A stretch of DNA of 31,938 nucleotides, taken from NCBI GenBank assembly GCA_964545135.1, contig CAZJEY010000001.1, positions 1-31,938 of the forward strand. The letters run 5' to 3'. Source of the DNA: an uncultured Mycoplasma sp. (GTDB lineage: Bacteria; Bacillota_I; Bacilli_A; RF39; UBA660). The notes under the pieces were generated by a model, which ran no database searches, was not told where the DNA came from, and saw nothing but the letters and a program-made list of their open reading frames with translations. Numbering within the stretch: position 1 is the stretch's first letter; every line of letters starts with the position of its first letter. Made by a program: the position numbers and the translations under genes. Positions 9,719 through 19,400 of the stretch are shown piece after piece.

Positions 9719-10324
9719 CTAGTTTTTTTGAAGATTATTTACAATCATTTGTCGAACAATATCTTCTAAATATTTATTTGCTGTAATTAAATCCATATTA
9801 GAAACATCAATTGGTTTACCAATAATTAATTTAGGATTACTTCTAAATTTATATTCACCTATTATGGCAAAAGGAATGATTTTTTTATGAGATTTGATAG
9901 CAAAATCTACTGCGCCTTTTTTAAATGGTAAAAGAATGTCATCTTTATGATACGTTCCTTCTGGAAAAATACATACTATTTTATCTTCTTTTAATAGTTT
10001 AATTGCTTCTTTTTTAGCCTCAGGATTCTTTTTACTACGATCTACTGGTATTAAGTGCATAGTGCTAAAAAACCATCTAGTAATAAAATTAGAAAACAAT
10101 TCTTTTTTAGCAATAAAATGAAGTGGCCTTTTAGTTGCATTACACAATAAATACGGATCGTAATTACCTACATGATTACCAGCAAAAACAAAACCTTCTT
10201 TTTCTAAAATATTATCTTTACCTATTATTTTACCACCAAATATTAGATAACCTATAGGAATAATAATAGATAGAAAAAAATGATAACCGAAATAACTACT
10301 TTTCTTTCTTTTTTCTTTTTTCAT
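9719..10324 (-). CDS. plsC: 1-acyl-sn-glycerol-3-phosphate acyltransferase (PlsC family)
   Basis: NHVGNYD (NHxxxxD), FIAKKELF, PVDR, IFPEGT, FKKGA; N-terminal hydrophobic segment. Confidence 0.88.
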   Translation of the reverse strand: MKKEKRKKSSYFGYHFFLSIIIPIGYLIFGGKIIGKDNILEKEGFVFAGNHVGNYDPYLLCNATKRPLHFIAKKELFSNFITRWFFSTMHLIPVDRSKKNPEAKKEAIKLLKEDKIVCIFPEGTYHKDDILLPFKKGAVDFAIKSHKKIIPFAIIGEYKFRSNPKLIIGKPIDVSNMDLITANKYLEDIVRQMIVNNLQKN

Positions 10325-12035
10325 TCTCTTCTTCTTCTAATTTTTTAAATGCGACTTTTCCTACTAAAGTGGTTGGCAATTTTTCCTTATATTCATATTC
10401 TTGTGGAATAGCATAGTAACTTATATTTTTATTACATAGTTCTTGTATCTCTTTTTTTATGTCTCCATTTAATTCAATGCCATCTTCAAGAACTATAAAA
10501 GCTTTAGCAACTTGTCCTTTGTAAGGATGGGGAATACCAATTACGGTACATGCAGATACTTTTGGATGACTCATTATAACGTTTTCAATATGCGATGGAT
10601 AAATATTATAACCACTGGAAATAATAATTCTTTTTAATCTTTGTTTAAAATAAATTAAACCATTTTTATCCATACAACCGACGTCACCTGTATGTAACCA
10701 AACTTTACCATCTTCATGAAATCTTAAAGCTTGATTTGTTTCAACTGGATCATTTAAATATTTTAACATTACTGTTGGTCCACTAATACAAATTTCGCCA
10801 TCTTTACCAATTGGCACTTCTTTATGAGTACCATTTTCTACAAGCTTGAAATACATATCGGGAAGAGGATAACCTATACTTCCTTCCTTATAACCATCTA
10901 TTGGGGATAGACATGTTGCTCCAGTTGCCTCTGTTAAACCATAACCTGGTCTTACTTTGGCTCTAGAACCATGTTCTCGTAAATAATTATCTATTTCTTT
11001 TTTTTGATTTTCAGATAGGAAATCTCCGCCACTTATAACAGCTTCTACACATTCGAGCTCATTTGTTTTTAATTTCTGCTTTAATAGCGCTTCAAATAGC
11101 GTTGGAACCCCAACAATAAAGTTTGGCTTATATCGTCTAATTAAGTCTCCAAATTCTTTAGCTTTAAATTGCGGTATTAAAGTACATTTCATCCCAAAAG
11201 TTAAAGGTGTATGAATACATACTGCTAAGCCAAAACCATGAAATATTGGCAAAATTGATAAAACACTATTCCCAGGCACTACTTCTTTTATCATTTCTTT
11301 AGCTTGATAAGCAAGAGCATTAAAATTTAAATTTGATAAAAGTATCGCTTTAGGTTTTCCAGTTGTTCCACCACTATATAAAATAACTGCTGGATCGTAA
11401 GCATTTCTTGGTTCATGACATACTCCTACAAAGTTTTTAGCACTATTAATAAAAGTAGTCCATAAAACGATGTCATCATCATCTTTAGGTATAGCAAATT
11501 TACGCATGTTTCCAATTTTGTATAATGTCTTTTTAACATATGGTAATGATTCACCTGCAGAAGCCACTAAAATTTTTTGCAACTTTGTATTTCTTTTAAT
11601 ATTAATTATTTTTTCTAAGGCAACATCAATTACTAAAATAAATTTCGCATCTGCTTGATTTATATAATTTTCAATTTCTTTTTCGCCTGACATAGGATGA
11701 ATCATTGTTGCTATAGCACCAATTAAGTTTGTAGCATAAACCATAATTACTCCTTCAGGAGTATTAGGCATACAAATACATACTTTATCATCCTTAGAAA
11801 CGCCATAATTTTTTAAAGCTTTAGCTGCATTTTCAATTTCTTTTACAAAATTTCGATATGTAACTTTATTACCAAAATATTCATAAGCATAATACTCAGG
11901 ATATTTTCTTGCTGTTTCCATTATTACATCAGAAATACTATTATTTGGATATTCTAAATTAGCTCTCGCATCTTGATAATTTTTTAACCATGGTCTTAAT
12001 TCGTTATCTTTTTTAATCATTTTTGATTTTTTCAT
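10296..12035 (-). CDS. Long-chain acyl-CoA synthetase-like AMP-binding enzyme
   Basis: YSGGTTGKPK, PIFHGFG, GYGLTE, WLHTGD, R.KRIIISSGYNIYP, LPTTLVGKV; GGAGG RBS. Confidence 0.9.
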   Translation of the reverse strand: MKKSKMIKKDNELRPWLKNYQDARANLEYPNNSISDVIMETARKYPEYYAYEYFGNKVTYRNFVKEIENAAKALKNYGVSKDDKVCICMPNTPEGVIMVYATNLIGAIATMIHPMSGEKEIENYINQADAKFILVIDVALEKIINIKRNTKLQKILVASAGESLPYVKKTLYKIGNMRKFAIPKDDDDIVLWTTFINSAKNFVGVCHEPRNAYDPAVILYSGGTTGKPKAILLSNLNFNALAYQAKEMIKEVVPGNSVLSILPIFHGFGLAVCIHTPLTFGMKCTLIPQFKAKEFGDLIRRYKPNFIVGVPTLFEALLKQKLKTNELECVEAVISGGDFLSENQKKEIDNYLREHGSRAKVRPGYGLTEATGATCLSPIDGYKEGSIGYPLPDMYFKLVENGTHKEVPIGKDGEICISGPTVMLKYLNDPVETNQALRFHEDGKVWLHTGDVGCMDKNGLIYFKQRLKRIIISSGYNIYPSHIENVIMSHPKVSACTVIGIPHPYKGQVAKAFIVLEDGIELNGDIKKEIQELCNKNISYYAIPQEYEYKEKLPTTLVGKVAFKKLEEEENEKRKKKEK

Positions 12036-13033: not shown

Positions 13034-13107
13034 GCAGGTGTAGTTTAATGGTAGAATAAGAGCCTTCCAAGCTCCTGACGTGAGTTCGATTCTCATCACC
13101 TGCTCCA
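13034..13107 (+). tRNA. tRNA-Gly(TCC) with encoded CCA
   Basis: Cloverleaf: acceptor GCAGGTG/CACCTGC, D-arm GTTT-AATGGTA-GAAT, anticodon loop CT-TCC-AA, T-arm GTGAG-TTCGATT-CTCAT, 3' T-CCA. Confidence 0.97.
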
Positions 13108-13118
13108 ATGAGGTTAAT

Positions 13119-13152
13119 ACTCGCACACTTATATAGTGATTGCGAGTTTTTC
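13119..13152 (+). terminator. Intrinsic terminator after tRNA-Gly
   Basis: actcgca-cact-tatat-agtg-at-tgcgagt followed by a T-run. Confidence 0.8.
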
Positions 13153-13188
13153 ATTTGTATAAAAAAGTTCGTATATTTAATATGATAG

Positions 13189-13617
13189 GTTCTTCTGCAG
13201 GAGCAATTATTGACAATAGCAATTCGCAAGAAAAGCAGAAAATAATATAAAAGAATTACTTATTTCTTTGTTAATGTTTATATTTATTACAAAGGCACTA
13301 ATACAACAATGCATGAATATTTAACATATTTAGTTGCTTTAGTTGCATTTTAGTCTATTAGCTCTGCAATATATGGAATAGTTAAATATAAAAGAAATCA
13401 TACTCCAATATTAAAAGCAGTAAAATTAACAAATTTTGCCAATGCTTTAACTTCAATAATGTTCACACAAATAGTATTATTAGATGCTTATGCGAATACA
13501 GAAATTTATAATTCAAATTTAATAAATGGTTTAACAAGTATGGGTATAGGAATAATAATTATTATATTAGGTTTGTATATGATAATTGGTATAAATAAAA
13601 TACGAAAGATAGATTAA
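13189..13617 (+). pseudogene. Degraded multi-pass membrane protein gene
   Basis: One frame reads ...KGTNTTMHEYLTYLVALVAF*SISSAIYGIVKYKRNHTPILKAVKLTNFANALTSIMFTQIVLL...IGIIIIILGLYMIIGINKIRKID* with in-frame stops at 13243-13245 (TAA) and 13351-13353 (TAG) and no usable 5' start; a terminator hairpin follows. Confidence 0.7.
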
Positions 13618-13761
13618 TTTTAAGTCTATCTTTTTTACAAATTACAATTTATACAATAAATCATATTGCGTAAATTAAGACAAATGGTGTGATAAATACA
13701 TCAAAGACAAATGAATTTGTTTATCAAAAATGTGCATTACCTTAAGTAATGGCTAAAATTG

Positions 13762-13801
13762 AAAATAACTTACAAACTTTATATAGCTTGTAAGTTATTT
13801 T
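13762..13801. terminator. Perfect 14-bp hairpin (bidirectional terminator-like)
   Basis: aaaataacttacaa / ttgtaagttatttt with a 12-nt loop. Confidence 0.6.
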
Positions 13802-14060
13802 TGGTATTTATTTCAAAGAAAAAGATATATTTACATTTGTCAGATGCTGATGGAATATTTGGATAAAATTATCTTCATCTAAAGTTAATCTTTCTTATAT
13901 CAATGAATATCTTTGTCTTTGTAGTTTTCTAACACTCTATTTAGAATTAATTGTTTCTTCTTGAGTCTAGGTTTACTATAAAACCTTAAAAATTGATATA
14001 CTCCCATTATTTTTTAATTAAAAACGTGAATCTTATTGTTGAATATTCTGCAATATATTC

Positions 14061-14083
14061 CAAAAATACGAAATCGTTCGTAC
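14061..14083 (-). terminator. Terminator after the small acidic ORF
   Basis: Minus strand GTACGAA-CGAT-TTCGTAT-TTTT directly at the stop codon. Confidence 0.7.
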
Positions 14084-14349
14084 TATAGTTTTTTGCCATT
14101 ACCCTTAATATTAATAAAATCTTCGATTTCATCCCTTGTAATTGCACCATTATAATCTGAAATACTTTGAGCTAAATCTAGAGCTTTATCAGATATGTAT
14201 GGAATTGTTTTTAATTCACGACTTATATCAATGCCTAATGCTAATTGTTCTTCTACAGTAAAAACTCTTATAAAGTTTTCACTTTCTATGCTTTCGACTA
14301 TTGCCCCAATAACAGCTTGCAAATCTTCTTCACTTATTCTATTTTCCAT
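14083..14349 (-). CDS. Small acidic helical hypothetical protein, candidate antitoxin or partner
   Basis: AGGGTGA RBS then ATG 14349 (88 aa), just downstream of the previous stop; D/E-rich. Confidence 0.7.
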   Translation of the reverse strand: MENRISEEDLQAVIGAIVESIESENFIRVFTVEEQLALGIDISRELKTIPYISDKALDLAQSISDYNGAITRDEIEDFINIKGNGKKL

Positions 14350-14363
14350 CTTTATCACCCTTA

Positions 14364-15833
14364 TTATATTTTTCTTCCATTTATAGTTGAAATTTCTGTA
14401 CTAATACCGACTGAATTAATATCAAACAAATCTCTCCATTTTTGTAGAGATCTTAACAACTCATTATTTTTTCCAACTCTAATATTTTCCGATTTTGCTG
14501 TAAAAATTGAATTAGGCACAATATTTCCATTATTATCATATATAAATTTTCTAAAAATAAAATCCTTTTTTTGTTTTTGCGTTTTTAATAAATCATTTAA
14601 TACAGAACTTGCTGTATTCCTAGAATTTAATCCAGCTTTATAATTTGTTGATGCTACTGTCATATAATTCCCATCTGAAAGCATAGCTAAACAAAAACAT
14701 GTTTTAAAGAAATCTCCTCGCATAAAAGAAGAAGTTTTAATGACTATTTTTTCCCATGGTAATATTTCATAAAATTTACCATTTTCTTCATACAAACCAC
14801 CTAAATTTATAATTCTATCTCTATTAACCATTATTGCCTCAAATACTTCTAATGCAGAAGCATTAGGTTTTAAAGGAACTAAATTACCATTCATATCAAC
14901 TGTTCCCAAAATTTTTCTTGCTGTTTCATTTGTTATAATATTAGCTGGTTGAATTCCAAGTAAATGAGGAATATTATATTTTGTTAAATAATACTTAAAA
15001 GAAAAAGTACTTCCATCGGATAAGCGTGCGGTGTTGTCAATAACTTTGGAACCATCAGTATATATTTTTCTGTAAGTATCCCAACACAATGATAGGTTTT
15101 CATATAAAATTTCCATTAATTTTTTCATAATCTTATGTTTATCAGAATCCGAACTAAAATTAACTCCTAAAGGAAAGTCTTGCAATTCGATATCTTTTAA
15201 TTCGCGTGTTTTACCAGAATGAACATCTACTATTTGTTTACTATTATGTGTATGTTTATCTATGTCTGTTGTTGCAGTAAACGTATATTGACCATTATTT
15301 TCTCTTAAATATAGGTTATTTCCTTTAACATCTTTTCTATAAAATCCCTCTTCTCTTTGAATGTTTTTTCCACTTGATGCCTCAATCAAATTAATTAAAG
15401 ATATATCATCAAAATAAAATCTTTTATTCAATCTATTACTTAAATATTCTAAATACTCAAATATTTCAATTTGAAAATTCCTTGGTATCCCATTACTTAA
15501 ACAGTATTTTTCTAATTGAAGCAATATTTTTTCTTGTTCGAAATGAGTTAATGCCATATCTATTGAACAATTAAATAAATCACTAGAAAAATTTATAATA
15601 AATTGCTTTTTTAAATTTTCATAACAATCAATAAATTCTTTATATGCCAACTTAATATATCTTAATTTTTCTAAATCATCTGCAAATATAGAACTCATAA
15701 TATTAAAATTATTATTAAATTCATCAAAATTACTCATTATTATTCTTTTTGAACTTTCAGATTGGATCTCATCTAAACCAATAACTTCTAAAAATATACT
15801 TTTTTTCATTTCATCTACTATATTTTCACTCAT
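14364..15833 (-). CDS. Hypothetical protein with a C-terminal PBECR4-like (barnase/EndoU/colicin/RelE-fold) nuclease domain
   Basis: GGTGG RBS then ATG 15833 and an extended -10 upstream; motifs W.TY..IY, YNIPHLLGI, WEKIVIK and IVPNSIF resemble PBECR4 (Y...F...NF.HLLG...K...P.S). The ORF is confident, the domain call is moderate. Confidence 0.55.
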   Translation of the reverse strand: MSENIVDEMKKSIFLEVIGLDEIQSESSKRIIMSNFDEFNNNFNIMSSIFADDLEKLRYIKLAYKEFIDCYENLKKQFIINFSSDLFNCSIDMALTHFEQEKILLQLEKYCLSNGIPRNFQIEIFEYLEYLSNRLNKRFYFDDISLINLIEASSGKNIQREEGFYRKDVKGNNLYLRENNGQYTFTATTDIDKHTHNSKQIVDVHSGKTRELKDIELQDFPLGVNFSSDSDKHKIMKKLMEILYENLSLCWDTYRKIYTDGSKVIDNTARLSDGSTFSFKYYLTKYNIPHLLGIQPANIITNETARKILGTVDMNGNLVPLKPNASALEVFEAIMVNRDRIINLGGLYEENGKFYEILPWEKIVIKTSSFMRGDFFKTCFCLAMLSDGNYMTVASTNYKAGLNSRNTASSVLNDLLKTQKQKKDFIFRKFIYDNNGNIVPNSIFTAKSENIRVGKNNELLRSLQKWRDLFDINSVGISTEISTINGRKI

Positions 15834-16170
15834 CAGTACCACCATCTTTTATATTTACTTTCTAATAAAATTATACCAAATTTCTAACAAAAAGTCTTAA
15901 ATATTATAAAAAATTCCTCTTATAAATATTTCATCAAAAAATAGGTATAATAGTTTTCTTTTTTATACGAAAAATATGGTATAAATACTATATCACTATA
16001 TCATGATTTTCAGTATTATTATAGCTAAATAACTTTTAACAAAACAGAAATAATTGCTCTAAATACTTGTAAAAAAAATTGAATTATTGTCTTCTCAACT
16101 AATATATTTTTTTATCTAAAAGCACTAATATAATAAATTAAAAGAAAAACATGCTTGCTTTGAAAACAAA

Positions 16171-17319
16171 TTAATTCTTTAGCTTTATATTTGTTCTTTT
16201 AAACATTAATATTTTACTAATTAAGAAATAGAATAACCCAAATATTAAAACTACTATAAAGCTTAAAATAATTGGTTTTATTGTTTCAAAATTAAATATT
16301 GATAATTTTACTATTTCATAGTTTCCATGAATAAACCAATAAGAAGGAAATAATTTAGAAAATTTGACTATATTGGGAGCTAAAAACTCTATTGGAACAA
16401 AGCAACCAGAAATAAAACTAAGTCCAAGTGCTAGCACATTTTGTACTCCAGATATAACATTTTGGTTCTTAATTAAACAACCTACCAAATAAGCTAAACT
16501 TGTAATAGTAAACGCAAATAGTAAAGAATTAATTATTAATAACAGTCCATTAATACTAAACATTAAATCTTTATAAAGAATAATACTAATTAAAACAAAT
16601 ATTAGCCAAATACTAATTGTTAAAACAAAATGTCCTAAAAATAATTGAGTTGCAAAACTTTTGGTGTTTAAACTGCTGACAGCGTTTCTCTTTTTTATTG
16701 TTTCTTTATTAAAAATACACATAATAGTACCAATTATAAATATAAATATTGATAAAAATGCATAATTTTCAAAACTATAATATACTGCTAACTTATCTAA
16801 TTCTGATTTATTAGTACTTGCAACCTTAACTTTTACTTCATTTTGAGTAATACTTTTAATATTTTCAATTATTTCACTTTCTGCCATACCAGATTTTCTA
16901 CATGTTTCAGCTATTTTAATATATCTATTAATTAAAAGTTCAGTATATTCGGACATATTTCGAGTAGATTTCTTAATACTTATGGAAATCTTCTTACCAT
17001 CTAAAAAATCTTTACCAAAATTATTTGGAATAATTAATAAAGTATCAATTTTATTTAAATATAGGGCATCTTGTATTGATTTATCATTATTATCTATCTC
17101 AATAATTTCTGCTTTATCACTGATATAATCAACAAAGTTTTTAGATAAATTTGATTCATCATAATTAATTATTGATATATTTGGATTTACATTTACATAA
17201 TCTTCTTTACTAGTATAATTTGTATTAATAACTGAAATGCCTATTGAAATAGCTGCAAACATAATTATTAGTCCTAAATGTTTTTTTACTATTTTAAAAT
17301 AATTCTTAAATACTATCAT
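16171..17319 (-). CDS. ABC-2 type exporter permease
   Basis: One N-terminal TM, a large extracytoplasmic loop and about 5 C-terminal TMs; FISGCFVP, FPSYW. Confidence 0.9.
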   Translation of the reverse strand: MIVFKNYFKIVKKHLGLIIMFAAISIGISVINTNYTSKEDYVNVNPNISIINYDESNLSKNFVDYISDKAEIIEIDNNDKSIQDALYLNKIDTLLIIPNNFGKDFLDGKKISISIKKSTRNMSEYTELLINRYIKIAETCRKSGMAESEIIENIKSITQNEVKVKVASTNKSELDKLAVYYSFENYAFLSIFIFIIGTIMCIFNKETIKKRNAVSSLNTKSFATQLFLGHFVLTISIWLIFVLISIILYKDLMFSINGLLLIINSLLFAFTITSLAYLVGCLIKNQNVISGVQNVLALGLSFISGCFVPIEFLAPNIVKFSKLFPSYWFIHGNYEIVKLSIFNFETIKPIILSFIVVLIFGLFYFLISKILMFKRTNIKLKN

Positions 17320-18451
17320 ACTTTTTCCTCCTTATAAATATAAAAGATAATACTATAAATATCAAAGAGAAAATAGAAATACGTTGTAAACAATTATAAT
17401 AAACATCTAGGTTATCATAGGCAAATAAAGAGTATAATCCATCTGTAATAATATTTACAGGGTTTATTTTAGCTAATAATGGGAAAGTTTCATCAAAATA
17501 GACTTTTATATCTATTACTCCCATCATTCCTGAAAAGAAACAACACATCATAATTACAGAAATTAAAACTCCTATTTTAAATCCTTCTGACTTTTTATTT
17601 GATACACCAATAAAAGTTCCTAACGAAGTTCCTGCTAAACAACCCACCATTGCTAAAATAATTGTTGGTAAAATTTGATCACCAAAATTAATATTAAAGA
17701 CAAATATTAAGTATAAAAATAATAATGCTAACGCTACTAATTGAATTACATAACCGGCTAATAAGCTTGAGATAATCATTTTAAATTTATTGACTGGAGC
17801 CATACAGATTCTTGCTCCTTTTTTGCTTAAATTAGCTATGCAATCTTTTATAACTTCTAAACCTATTAAACTACCATACATACAAGTCATAGCAATCAAT
17901 GTAAAAAAATAATTAATACTAAAATCAATTTTTTCATTTGAATTATCTACTACATAATTTGTATCACTATGTAAGGATTCTAAAACACCATTATAAAGCG
18001 TTTCAGAATTATAATTAATTATCGTTAAAGAAGCGTTTGATAATTGTAAATATTCATCTAAAACACTTTTAATAATTGTTTGATTTATTCCACTATTTTT
18101 TACAACCATTTGAGGATCATTATTTTCACTTAATAAAATATATCCATCGATTTCTTCATTGTTAAGTAACTTTTCTGCTTCAGCCTCATCAACATAAATA
18201 GTATCGAAAAGTTGATTATCATTTTTTTCTGATAAGCTAGCTATTACATTTTTGAAAATATTATTATTTTGATAGTAATGATTATTTACTACCGCAATAG
18301 GTATTACATCCATTTCAAAGTTCTTATCAATATTCCCTAAAGCGAGTTGAAAAAAAGTGCCTAGAACAAACGGAAAAATTAATGACCAAAAAAGCATTGC
18401 TTTATTATTTAAAAGTATTTTTAATTTATTAATAAATAAATGATAAAACAT
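17306..18451 (-). CDS. ABC-2 type exporter permease
   Basis: FWSLIFP, FFSGMMG, INPVNII; same topology; overlaps the next gene. Confidence 0.9.
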   Translation of the reverse strand: MFYHLFINKLKILLNNKAMLFWSLIFPFVLGTFFQLALGNIDKNFEMDVIPIAVVNNHYYQNNNIFKNVIASLSEKNDNQLFDTIYVDEAEAEKLLNNEEIDGYILLSENNDPQMVVKNSGINQTIIKSVLDEYLQLSNASLTIINYNSETLYNGVLESLHSDTNYVVDNSNEKIDFSINYFFTLIAMTCMYGSLIGLEVIKDCIANLSKKGARICMAPVNKFKMIISSLLAGYVIQLVALALLFLYLIFVFNINFGDQILPTIILAMVGCLAGTSLGTFIGVSNKKSEGFKIGVLISVIMMCCFFSGMMGVIDIKVYFDETFPLLAKINPVNIITDGLYSLFAYDNLDVYYNCLQRISIFSLIFIVLSFIFIRRKKYDSI

Positions 18452-18461
18452 AACATCACCT

Positions 18462-19400
18462 TTAATCTCTAAGTTCTTTTCCTGTTAATTCTAAAAAAAC
18501 ATCATTTAGTGTTGGAAGTTCAGAAAAAATCTTATTATATTTAATATCATTTTGTTTTAAGAAAGCCATTATTTTTTCTAAATTATTTTCGCCTTTTTTG
18601 AAAATAACATATAAGGTATTATCTTCATTCTTAATATCTAAAACATTTTCAATACTTTTTAATTCTATTAGCATTTTTTTAGTTACATTATCTAATTCAA
18701 TTGTAATTTTTTCACCAATAGTTGTAAGTTCTTTTAAGTCTTCTTTAGTTCCAACTGCAATAACTTTTCCTCTATCTAAAATAGCTATTCTATTACATAA
18801 TTGTTCAACTTCTTCCATATAGTGAGTAGTATAAACAATAGTTGCACCATTCTTATTTAATTTCTTAATTCCATTTAAAATACTATTTCTACTTTGAGGA
18901 TCTACGGCAACAGTTGGTTCATCTAAAAATATCAATTCAGGTTTATGAGCAATTCCACAAGCGATATTTAATCTTCTTAGAAGTCCTCCAGATAATTGTT
19001 TTGGTCTAAATTTTTTGAATTCCTCAAGTCCCGTTAATTTAATTGCATCTTCTACATATCGTAATCTTTTCTTTTTGTCTTTAATATATAATCCACAAAA
19101 ATAATTTATATTTTCATATACTGTTAATTCCTCAAATACTGCGACATCTTGAAATACAACACCAATTTTTGATTTTAAATCATAACTATCAGGTTTCATA
19201 TCTTGCCCAAATATTTTAATATTACCTTTTTCATAACTTAATAGTGATAATATACAATTTATTGTTGTTGATTTACCACTTCCGTTTGGGCCAAGAAGTC
19301 CAAATATTTTTCCTTTTTCTACATATAATGATAACTCGTCAACTGCTTTAAATTTCCCATAATATTTTGTTAGTTTTTCTACTTCAATAATTTTTTCCAT
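18462..19400 (-). CDS. ABC exporter ATP-binding protein (DrrA/NatA-like)
   Basis: GPNGSGKST, LSGG, FLDEPT, TTHYMEE, PTLNDVFLELTG. Confidence 0.95.
   Translation of the reverse strand: MEKIIEVEKLTKYYGKFKAVDELSLYVEKGKIFGLLGPNGSGKSTTINCILSLLSYEKGNIKIFGQDMKPDSYDLKSKIGVVFQDVAVFEELTVYENINYFCGLYIKDKKKRLRYVEDAIKLTGLEEFKKFRPKQLSGGLLRRLNIACGIAHKPELIFLDEPTVAVDPQSRNSILNGIKKLNKNGATIVYTTHYMEEVEQLCNRIAILDRGKVIAVGTKEDLKELTTIGEKITIELDNVTKKMLIELKSIENVLDIKNEDNTLYVIFKKGENNLEKIMAFLKQNDIKYNKIFSELPTLNDVFLELTGKELRD

Follow-up and report, generated by a model that had tools for sequence, protein, structure and literature searches.

The window analysed here, a whole stretch of 31,938 nucleotides at the start of contig CAZJEY010000001.1 (assembly GCA_964545135.1, an uncultured Mycoplasma sp. 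of the RF39 lineage), contains two co-oriented open reading frames (ORFs) on the minus strand, 14364-15833 (489 aa) and 14083-14349 (88 aa), which raise a simple question: is a nuclease-like protein followed by a small acidic one a toxin with its antidote, or do both genes belong to something else? The first-pass annotation, made from the letters alone, placed a two-gene unit at 14083-15833, where both ORFs are indeed found at exactly these coordinates, and described it as a PBECR4-like nuclease fused to a novel N-terminal region plus a small acidic partner, possibly an undescribed toxin-immunity pair. Comparison with relatives establishes, at the sequence level, a different origin: the unit is one ancestral multidomain protein that has undergone fission, the tail now being a separate and apparently translationally coupled subunit. 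Our overall reading, to which we assign a probability of roughly 0.5, is that of a fissioned single protein with an RNase as its large subunit, regulated by the acidic tail in cis or in trans.

Residues are numbered in the 493-aa frame that opens at ATG 15845, the likely true start being residue 5 of this frame. The unit comprises the following elements.

14364..15833, minus strand: large cistron of 489 aa plus stop, corresponding to ~85 % of the ancestral protein from its N-terminus
14350..14363, minus strand: intercistronic junction TAAGGGTGATAAAG, with a second TAA, the Shine-Dalgarno (SD) sequence GGGTGA and a 5-nt spacer, then ATG 14349
14083..14349, minus strand: small cistron, 88 aa plus stop, starting MENRIS... 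behind GGGTGA

The large ORF stops at TAA 14366-14364. The next gene, starting at ATG 14349, encodes 88 aa and is acidic, as had been noted earlier (isoelectric point, pI, 4.3); its product carries IVESIEsENFIRvFTvEEQ... and a basic tail, GNGKKL.

In the database, 186 homologues of the large protein are found, without Pfam annotation and mostly 550-600 aa long, and the alignment shows the extra length of the fused homologues to be a C-terminal domain homologous to the 88-aa ORF of the window (compare IVESIENENFRRTFTKEEQLSLGVDISRELKTTPYIS in the fused 570-aa P0004 with IVESIESENFIRVFTVEEQLALGIDISRELKTIPYIS in the window). Fused homologues that match the 88-aa ORF at their C-termini range from 80 % down to 21 % in identity. 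The tail signature IVxSIENE...F[ST]xxEQ and a basic final stretch of four residues are present in nearly all full-length members examined, and the domain is kept even in members that are 21-25 % identical; the distant outlier P0132 is without the signature. Short forms are limited to the nearest relatives of the window, P0002, P0003 and P0005 (75-88 % identical), each then followed by an 88-aa ORF. At the four split loci (the window, L003, L047 and L048) the large ORF has 489-491 aa and is followed by the 88-aa ORF in 4/4; since the two parts are fused in most homologues, the co-occurrence asked about at the outset holds in that the pair is always together. Among 5.8 billion proteins, free-standing 88-aa homologues make up only 5 clusters (81-99 % identical). 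The tree places the split forms and the fused P0004 together with 100/100 support but does not resolve the branching of P0004, P0005 and the rest within this clade.

All four split junctions have a common layout of a stop, a GGTGA-type SD sequence and an ATG. The junction lies in an insert of ~40 nt, and the fused P0004 is without those nucleotides; the frame offset between the cistrons varies among the split loci. The ratio of nonsynonymous to synonymous substitution rates (dN/dS) among the four loci is 0.10-0.39 for the small ORF and 0.10-0.23 for the large one, and by this measure both halves are under purifying selection. Taken together, the homologous tails, the shared junction, the low dN/dS and the restriction of free copies to one clade argue for one recent, selectively maintained gene fission. 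Since the small acidic gene is the tail of the protein itself, there is no independent immunity gene here, and the idea of a separate partner gives way to that of the family's own C-terminal domain, split off.

How the junction arose is suggested by its ends. In 4/4 split loci the large ORF ends N-G-(K/R)-K-x(1-2)-stop, the natural end of the family being G-N-G-K-K-L-stop. The small ORF stands behind GGTGATA-n(2-3)-ATG in 3/4 split loci and behind GGGTGAC in the fourth; a GGTGATA-type start precedes the large ORF in three of the five loci compared (L003, L047 and the fused L001), and only ~2 % of the ORFs in the host genome follow GGTGATA. Small ORFs begin M-E-N, M-E-K or M-S-K-E, close to the M-(S/K)-E-N starts of large ORFs. 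With these shared endings, SD sequences and starts, the insert looks as if the 3' end of the gene had been joined to the gene's own 5' start. On sequence grounds, we infer that the junction would fit either fission by duplication and subsequent deletion or selection that favours a basic C-terminus on each of the two chains. A basic ending is seen on both cistrons (14364-14381 and 14083-14100 in the window; also in L003, L047 and L048), and the whole family ends basic; the N-G-(K/R)-K-x-stop ends may be a footprint of the origin of the fission or a functional C-terminal tag. A 27-nt tandem duplication was considered as the origin of the junction and rejected as chance, as Tandem Repeats Finder finds the repeat in the window only and in 0/3 of the other split loci.

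What, then, could the protein do? Fused relatives are single chains of about 550-770 aa composed of an acidic helical N-terminal domain, a basic alpha/beta domain, a Gly/Ser-rich linker and an acidic tail of ~75 residues with a basic end. An AlphaFold2 (AF2) model of the whole window protein reached a predicted local distance difference test (pLDDT) value of 83 and a predicted template modelling score of 0.80; the isolated alpha/beta domain, modelled separately, also reached a pLDDT of 83. The large subunit is divided as follows.

15348..15833, minus strand: N-terminal all-helical domain, residues 5-166, acidic (pI 4.7), delimited by AF2, conservation and pI
15141..15347, minus strand: beta-hairpin (residues 177-191) and mostly unstructured linker (residues 192-235), pLDDT 79-87 in the AF2 model
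14415..15140, minus strand: basic alpha/beta domain, residues 236-477, pI 9.4, divergent PBECR4-like, putative BECR RNase
14964..14966, minus strand: codon CAT of His294, invariant, the candidate catalytic His in x-P-H-L-L-G
14508..14510, minus strand: codon TCA of Ser446, Ser or Thr in 100 % of the family, in P-x-[ST] on the last core strand

The alpha/beta domain runs through a long helix, a beta-hairpin, NIPHLLGI, an insert of ~65 residues, the helix WEKIVIKTSSFMRGDFFK and four strands, the last of which bears VPNSIF. In the AF2 model, helix 364-375 is followed by strands 385-388, 394-400, 428-436 and 442-450, with an extra helix inserted in the sheet. Conservation was counted over 30 diverse aligned family members. 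The PHLLGI and P.S motifs noticed in the first-pass annotation are both present, as NIPHLLGI (His294) and VPNSIF (Ser446), and both positions are invariant in the family in the sense given above; Leu296 and Gly297 are invariant as well, and Glu365, Lys370, Thr371, Arg376, Asp378, Thr400, Asp428 and Glu453 are conserved in 93-100 %.

PBECR4 (Pfam PF18813) belongs to the phage-BECR families of predicted RNases described by Iyer, Burroughs, Anand, de Souza & Aravind 2017 (PMC5512222), where the PBECR core is described as a helix plus 4-5 strands, and the active site of 5/6 PBECR families as a His plus a C-terminal Thr/Ser. His294 and [ST]446 on a model of one helix and four strands agree with this definition. 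The family alignment (residues 228-480) was compared by hhalign with a PBECR4 profile of 60 proteins, 8 from genomes and 52 from the protein database (51 with PF18813, whose Pfam gathering score is 27 bits). The match extends over 54 columns (residues 247-303) with a score of 32.7 and P = 5e-4. It aligns helix 233-261, hairpin 267-287 and NIPHLLGI with the N-terminal helix, the hairpin and the F-x-H-L-x-G motif of PBECR4, His294 falling on a 98 %-conserved His (F43-x-H45-L46-x-G48; the Leu is also conserved in 98 %). Column-shuffled PBECR4 profiles scored 12.3 +/- 2.8 with a maximum of 21.9 in 100, and the reversed profile 12.8, so that the match stands ~7 standard deviations above the shuffles; eight comparisons between unrelated profiles gave 10-15. 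The C-terminal half is colinear with PBECR4, though not significantly similar, with Asp428 opposite the 80 %-conserved Asp122 and P-x-Ser446 opposite the P-x-S of some members; by this colinearity, from an alignment that is itself not significant, Ser/Thr446 may be the counterpart of the C-terminal Thr/Ser of PBECR families.

Like PBECR4, the domain thus has an N-terminal helix, a beta-hairpin, an aromatic-x-H-L-x-G type motif, helices and a beta-meander with P-x-S/T in the last strand, shares the invariant His and Ser/Thr and the local profile match, and occurs in low-GC gut Firmicutes. In contrast to PBECR4, it comprises ~240 residues, compared with ~175-215 aa for a whole stand-alone PBECR4 protein (188 positions in the Pfam model), and has the ~65-residue insert after the His motif and the helix inserted in the sheet. 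Moreover, it is embedded between two unique domains, scores below the Pfam model, and belongs to a chromosomal family with no member in phage, viral-contig or plasmid collections. On balance we consider it rather probable that the core is a divergent homologue of PBECR4 and a BECR-type RNase, and there is moderate support for a metal-independent BECR-type endoribonuclease using His294 and Ser446.

A number of observations weigh against this reading of the unit. Pfam, NCBIfam, PHROGs and PADLOC gave no match to either ORF, to 30 family members or to the tail domains. The core domain lies outside PBECR4 by the Pfam criterion: PF18813 gives no match at E <= 1 in the window protein and 29 relatives, and a six-frame search of the host genome with PF18813 was empty, while 6 other genomes and a Lactococcus control scored. 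hhalign gives a probability of just 32 %, the C-terminal half of the domain scores 13.1 versus 10.0 +/- 2.4 for shuffles, and the initial PBECR4 hypothesis came from the same HLxG motif that drives the hhalign score. Foldseek found nothing at E <= 1e-3, either with the whole model against PDB and BFVD or with the isolated domain against PDB, and TM-scores to BECR toxins are 0.16-0.24. No PADLOC-DB 2.0 defence model matches either ORF or the fused and distant relatives, nor does any known toxin-antitoxin (TA) model; no relatives were found in IMG/VR, GenBank phages or PLSDB plasmids; and no defence or mobile genes surround the unit in the window, where its neighbours are housekeeping genes. Finally, a fixed downstream block with a LysR regulator and a sigma-like protein, found at 32/33 loci, could point to a regulatory rather than a conflict role.

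The best Foldseek matches in PDB, in the searches with the protein and with the domain alike, were the BECR tRNase toxins CdiA-CT EC3006 (6cp8_A, E 0.093; 6vek_A, 0.15) and Kp342 (6cp9, 1.2-3.9), none of them significant. In BFVD, the best matches, also non-significant, included a protein annotated as 'large polyvalent protein-associated domain' (E = 0.024) and a 202-aa phage protein (probability 0.96, TM 0.46). NTF2-like matches with TM 0.25-0.30 were judged non-specific, and sequence profiles of PDB entries gave no match to the whole family or to the tail. The proposed BECR likeness stands in a weak form, with the hhalign P-value and the invariant His294 and Ser/Thr446 on one side and no match of the PBECR4 hidden Markov model (HMM) in 30 members on the other; likewise, the profile and fold comparisons suggested earlier recovered the N-terminal half of PBECR4 and placed BECR tRNases first, whereas neither the C-terminal half nor any Foldseek match is significant.

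The same evidence bears on the alternative that survives best, which we nevertheless regard as rather unlikely: the HLxG/P-x-S likeness could be convergent or too remote to be meaningful, and the protein a new fold, a non-RNase enzyme or a non-catalytic binding module, working with the products of the downstream genes in a regulatory or metabolic task of some kind. This block consists of a convergent LysR regulator (c1), a gene of ~205 aa (c2), a divergent sigma-70-family protein of ~314 aa (c3) and a gene of ~369 aa (c4); it follows the gene at 32 loci (L001, L003, L004, L007-L033, L047 and L048; e.g., L003:6230-9922), the window being the sole exception, while the upstream genes vary. Such strict linkage to a LysR and a sigma-70-family protein speaks for the alternative, as do the lack of any significant HMM or fold match and the invariant acidic residues Glu365, Asp378 and Asp428, which are atypical of metal-independent BECR sites. 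Against it, the profile-profile signal is specific (32.7 versus 10-15 for unrelated profiles) and spans three consecutive secondary-structure elements, beyond the motif itself; the invariant His and Ser/Thr are placed as in PBECR families; and BECR toxins recur as the top structural matches. As for the block, c2 is present in 15/101 and c4 in 11/101 genomes of the host family, versus 3/101 for the protein, both occur also without it, and the window copy has no block. The block thus appears to be a preferred neighbourhood and not an obligate partner, and the idea of an obligate five-gene system with LysR, c2, the sigma-like protein and c4 is weakened.

Several known systems help to place the fissioned protein. 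CdiA-CT EC3006 (6CP8, 6VEK) and Kp342 (6CP9), the toxins that head the structural matches, are colicin D-like alpha/beta BECR nucleases using Lys, Tyr, His, Arg and Thr, according to Gucinski et al. 2019 as presented in PMC9086364; they are neutralised by small, often helical, partner proteins. These toxins are delivered tips of giant CdiA proteins of Proteobacteria and have separate immunity genes. The polyvalent proteins of phages and conjugative elements (PMC5512222) combine a PBECR-type domain with uncharacterised helical domains in one multidomain chain, whereas the window protein has only three domains, no peptidase and no recognisable phage or conjugative element. In contrast to the CdiA-CT toxins, it looks cytoplasmic and has no delivery domain. 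In CapRel(SJ46), the toxin domain at the N-terminus is autoinhibited by an antitoxin-like domain at the C-terminus, and two-gene versions are found among its relatives. The window family would resemble proteins of this type in having an enzyme domain with a small C-terminal domain, a split two-gene sub-clade and an accessory, patchy gene; the core, however, is RNase-like and not a RelA/SpoT pyrophosphokinase, so that the likeness is one of analogy only. No Rfam motif and no RNA repeats that might represent an upstream RNA partner were found at the unit.

From these elements the following scheme may be proposed. The ancestral, and still predominant, form is one chain of ~550-770 aa. In the clade of the window, a linker insert of ~40 nt supplied a stop, an SD sequence and an ATG, turning the tail into a separate 88-aa subunit. 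The large subunit would be a metal-independent endoribonuclease with His294 and Ser/Thr446 as its candidate catalytic pair, and the acidic tail would bind it, in cis in most relatives and in trans in the window, and regulate or mask its basic RNA-binding face. There is a charge contrast between the alpha/beta domain (pI 9.4) and the tail (pI 4.3), and 7 other fused homologues have an acidic tail too. Fused toxin-antitoxin proteins offer an analogy, and with it a hint that the tail docks on the RNase and regulates it. The outcome would be a single-chain (here two-chain) effector-plus-inhibitor, like fused toxin-antitoxin or abortive-infection proteins.

For the N-terminal domain we infer, with some hesitation, a sensor or targeting module. 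The domain ends in the conserved block KRFxFDDxxLINLIEASxGxNI, in which Glu155 and Asn161 are invariant. The statement that ~230 N-terminal residues are unrecognisable was borne out, as the region has zero matches in Pfam, NCBIfam, PHROGs and PADLOC; its presentation as a special fusion was not, since the region is not lineage-specific and is conserved in most members. Where identity falls to 21-25 %, among the most distant relatives, similarity is found mainly over residues ~120-475.

A broader proposal, which we put forward only tentatively and think less likely to be right than wrong, is that gut Bacilli with reduced genomes have in these proteins a new family of RNase effectors, each a self-contained single chain with a helical sensor, a new and elaborated BECR RNase and a built-in acidic inhibitor, which would work in the manner of fused toxin-antitoxin or abortive-infection proteins, the fission standing midway to a two-gene TA pair. 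If our overall reading holds, this would be a very divergent branch of BECR RNases, invisible to current HMMs, and a natural fused-versus-split pair of the same effector-plus-tail protein would become available as a system for how cis-inhibited toxins become two-gene TA modules, or the reverse. The hosts are uncultured gut Bacilli with ~1 Mb genomes, and little is known of accessory conflict genes in such organisms. Should the RNase link prove wrong, the unit would still be a well-documented case of gene fission in a rare orphan family, which is of modest interest. In either case there is a lesson for annotation: when a nuclease-like gene is followed by a small acidic ORF, the latter need not encode immunity.

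The classical interpretation, a toxin-immunity or type II TA pair in which an RNase toxin is accompanied by an independently evolved small acidic antidote, is improbable. It would account well for the tightly coupled cistrons with a 14-nt junction and promoter-like and terminator-like signals, and for a basic enzyme-like domain next to an acidic small protein; BECR RNases are moreover common as toxins (PMC5512222; PMC9086364). An independent origin is, however, contradicted by the presence of the small protein as the family's own C-terminal domain, fused in nearly all relatives, and by the restriction of free-standing copies to one recent clade. The small protein has no DNA-binding domain; the 88-aa ORF and the tail domains match nothing in Pfam, NCBIfam, PHROGs, PADLOC or the PDB profiles, and no known antitoxin or immunity family matches the 88-aa ORF. 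A toxin-immunity pair of independent genes, as first suggested, is thus not what the unit appears to be. For a secreted toxin, a fused immunity domain would be senseless, and no trafficking domain was found: there is no LXG or other Pfam domain, the N-terminus is hydrophilic, and WXG100 was found neither in the host genome nor in 3/5 other carriers. As a selectively maintained fission, the unit does not represent a toxin gene with a recruited antidote, nor is it a pseudogene in decay. The latter possibility, that the split is the first step of decay in a shrinking genome, is very improbable: the host genome is small (0.78 Mb at 85 % completeness) and the unit lies in a variable, gene-poor stretch beside a tRNA-Gly gene, but both frames are intact in at least 4 divergent assemblies, with five further clusters of intact 88-aa copies (81-99 % identical), dN/dS is well below 1 for both ORFs, and every junction has a proper SD sequence and ATG despite the differing frame offsets.

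The start of the large product and the signals around the unit deserve a separate comment.

15839..15846, minus strand: Shine-Dalgarno-like GATGGTGG, 5 nt ahead of ATG 15833
15870..15878, minus strand: extended -10-like TGgTATAAT, ~37 nt upstream of the start codon, from direct reading
14062..14084, minus strand: hairpin with an 8-bp stem and loop CGAU, then U5, overlapping the stop of the small ORF, a weak candidate intrinsic terminator

The large ORF is listed from ATG 15845 (493 aa), and the start at ATG 15833-15831 (MSENI...) is favoured. In relatives the large ORF starts at the equivalent Met (MSEN, MEN or MKEN), preceded by GGTGATA; since they start at the equivalent of codon five, and GATGGTGG stands 5 nt upstream of it here, the product probably has 489 aa. 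Both the promoter and the terminator previously ascribed to the unit were confirmed in part. TGgTATAAT is present at 15878-15870, but a generic sigma-70 promoter scan of the region gave no enrichment (22 sites versus 28.6 in shuffles), so that it counts as a consensus match only. The hairpin and U-run at 14084-14062 (-7 kcal/mol, z = -2.4) are also real, but a stricter scan called no terminator at the unit.

Downstream of the unit, the window contains the following features.

13108..14061, strand not applicable: gene-free stretch of ~950 nt between the unit and tRNA-Gly(UCC), 24 % GC
13034-13107, plus strand: tRNA-Gly(UCC), at which synteny with congeners stops

The longest frame in the gene-free stretch is a hydrophobic 52-aa ORF at 13459-13617 on the plus strand. 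The stretch has no Rfam motif and no similarity to LysR or to the c2-c4 genes; a LysR remnant was sought there and none was found. In congeners the order of genes is a Mur ligase, a PlsC-like acyltransferase, an E2-like gene and tRNA-Gly(UCC), with divergence beyond. As congener synteny stops at the tRNA, the unit, the 950-nt gap and the ABC-2 operon upstream of the unit are species-specific DNA beside a tRNA gene. An att-like repeat of the tRNA-Gly 3' end was not found, nor was an integrase in the window. Twelve other species of the genus lack, at E <= 1e-20, any equivalent of the ABC-2 transporter operon (an ATPase and two permeases, 16171-19400), which is also accessory DNA at the tRNA-Gly-linked variable region. 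On the other side, an AMP-binding (acyl ligase) gene at 10296-12035 overlaps both of its neighbours; three congeners that are otherwise syntenic (L036-L038) have the PlsC-like and E2-like genes without it in between.

As to the genes of the downstream block, c2 has the invariant residues Cys11, Thr117, Asn119 and His133; c2 and c4 have no match in Pfam, NCBIfam or PADLOC, and c1, c2 and c4 were not found anywhere in the 85 %-complete host assembly. Several c2 homologues contain one or two in-frame TAA codons (G551:C7:36508-37759, G541:C16:1839-2480 and G546:C2:159186-159827), and in one genome two such copies lie side by side; these homologues could be pseudogenes, or TAA may be behaving in some other way. 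At L001, the upstream 570-aa gene was considered as a tandem paralogue and proved to be an unrelated low-complexity protein.

The family is rare, with 35 clusters at 50 % identity among 1.84 billion proteins, and patchy, being present in 3/151 genomes of the order and 3/101 genomes of the host family, samples that both include the window's own genome or centre genome; none of the 7 congeners among those listed carries the protein. Named relatives, among them Clostridium sp. CAG:628 and CAG:594 and Firmicutes bacterium CAG:321, are metagenome-assembled genomes (MAGs) of uncultured gut Bacilli, 1.1-1.5 Mb in size. The gene is thus accessory and fast-diverging, and this patchy distribution fits a conflict-type role. 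In two complete-chromosome MAGs, L027 (CP091726.1) and L033 (CP091739.1), the protein and the four downstream genes are broken into many short frames, which look like long-read assembly indel errors and not biology. Directly upstream of one split-form relative (L047:825-1887) lie TnpV and a relaxase fragment, the only hint of a mobile element in the family.

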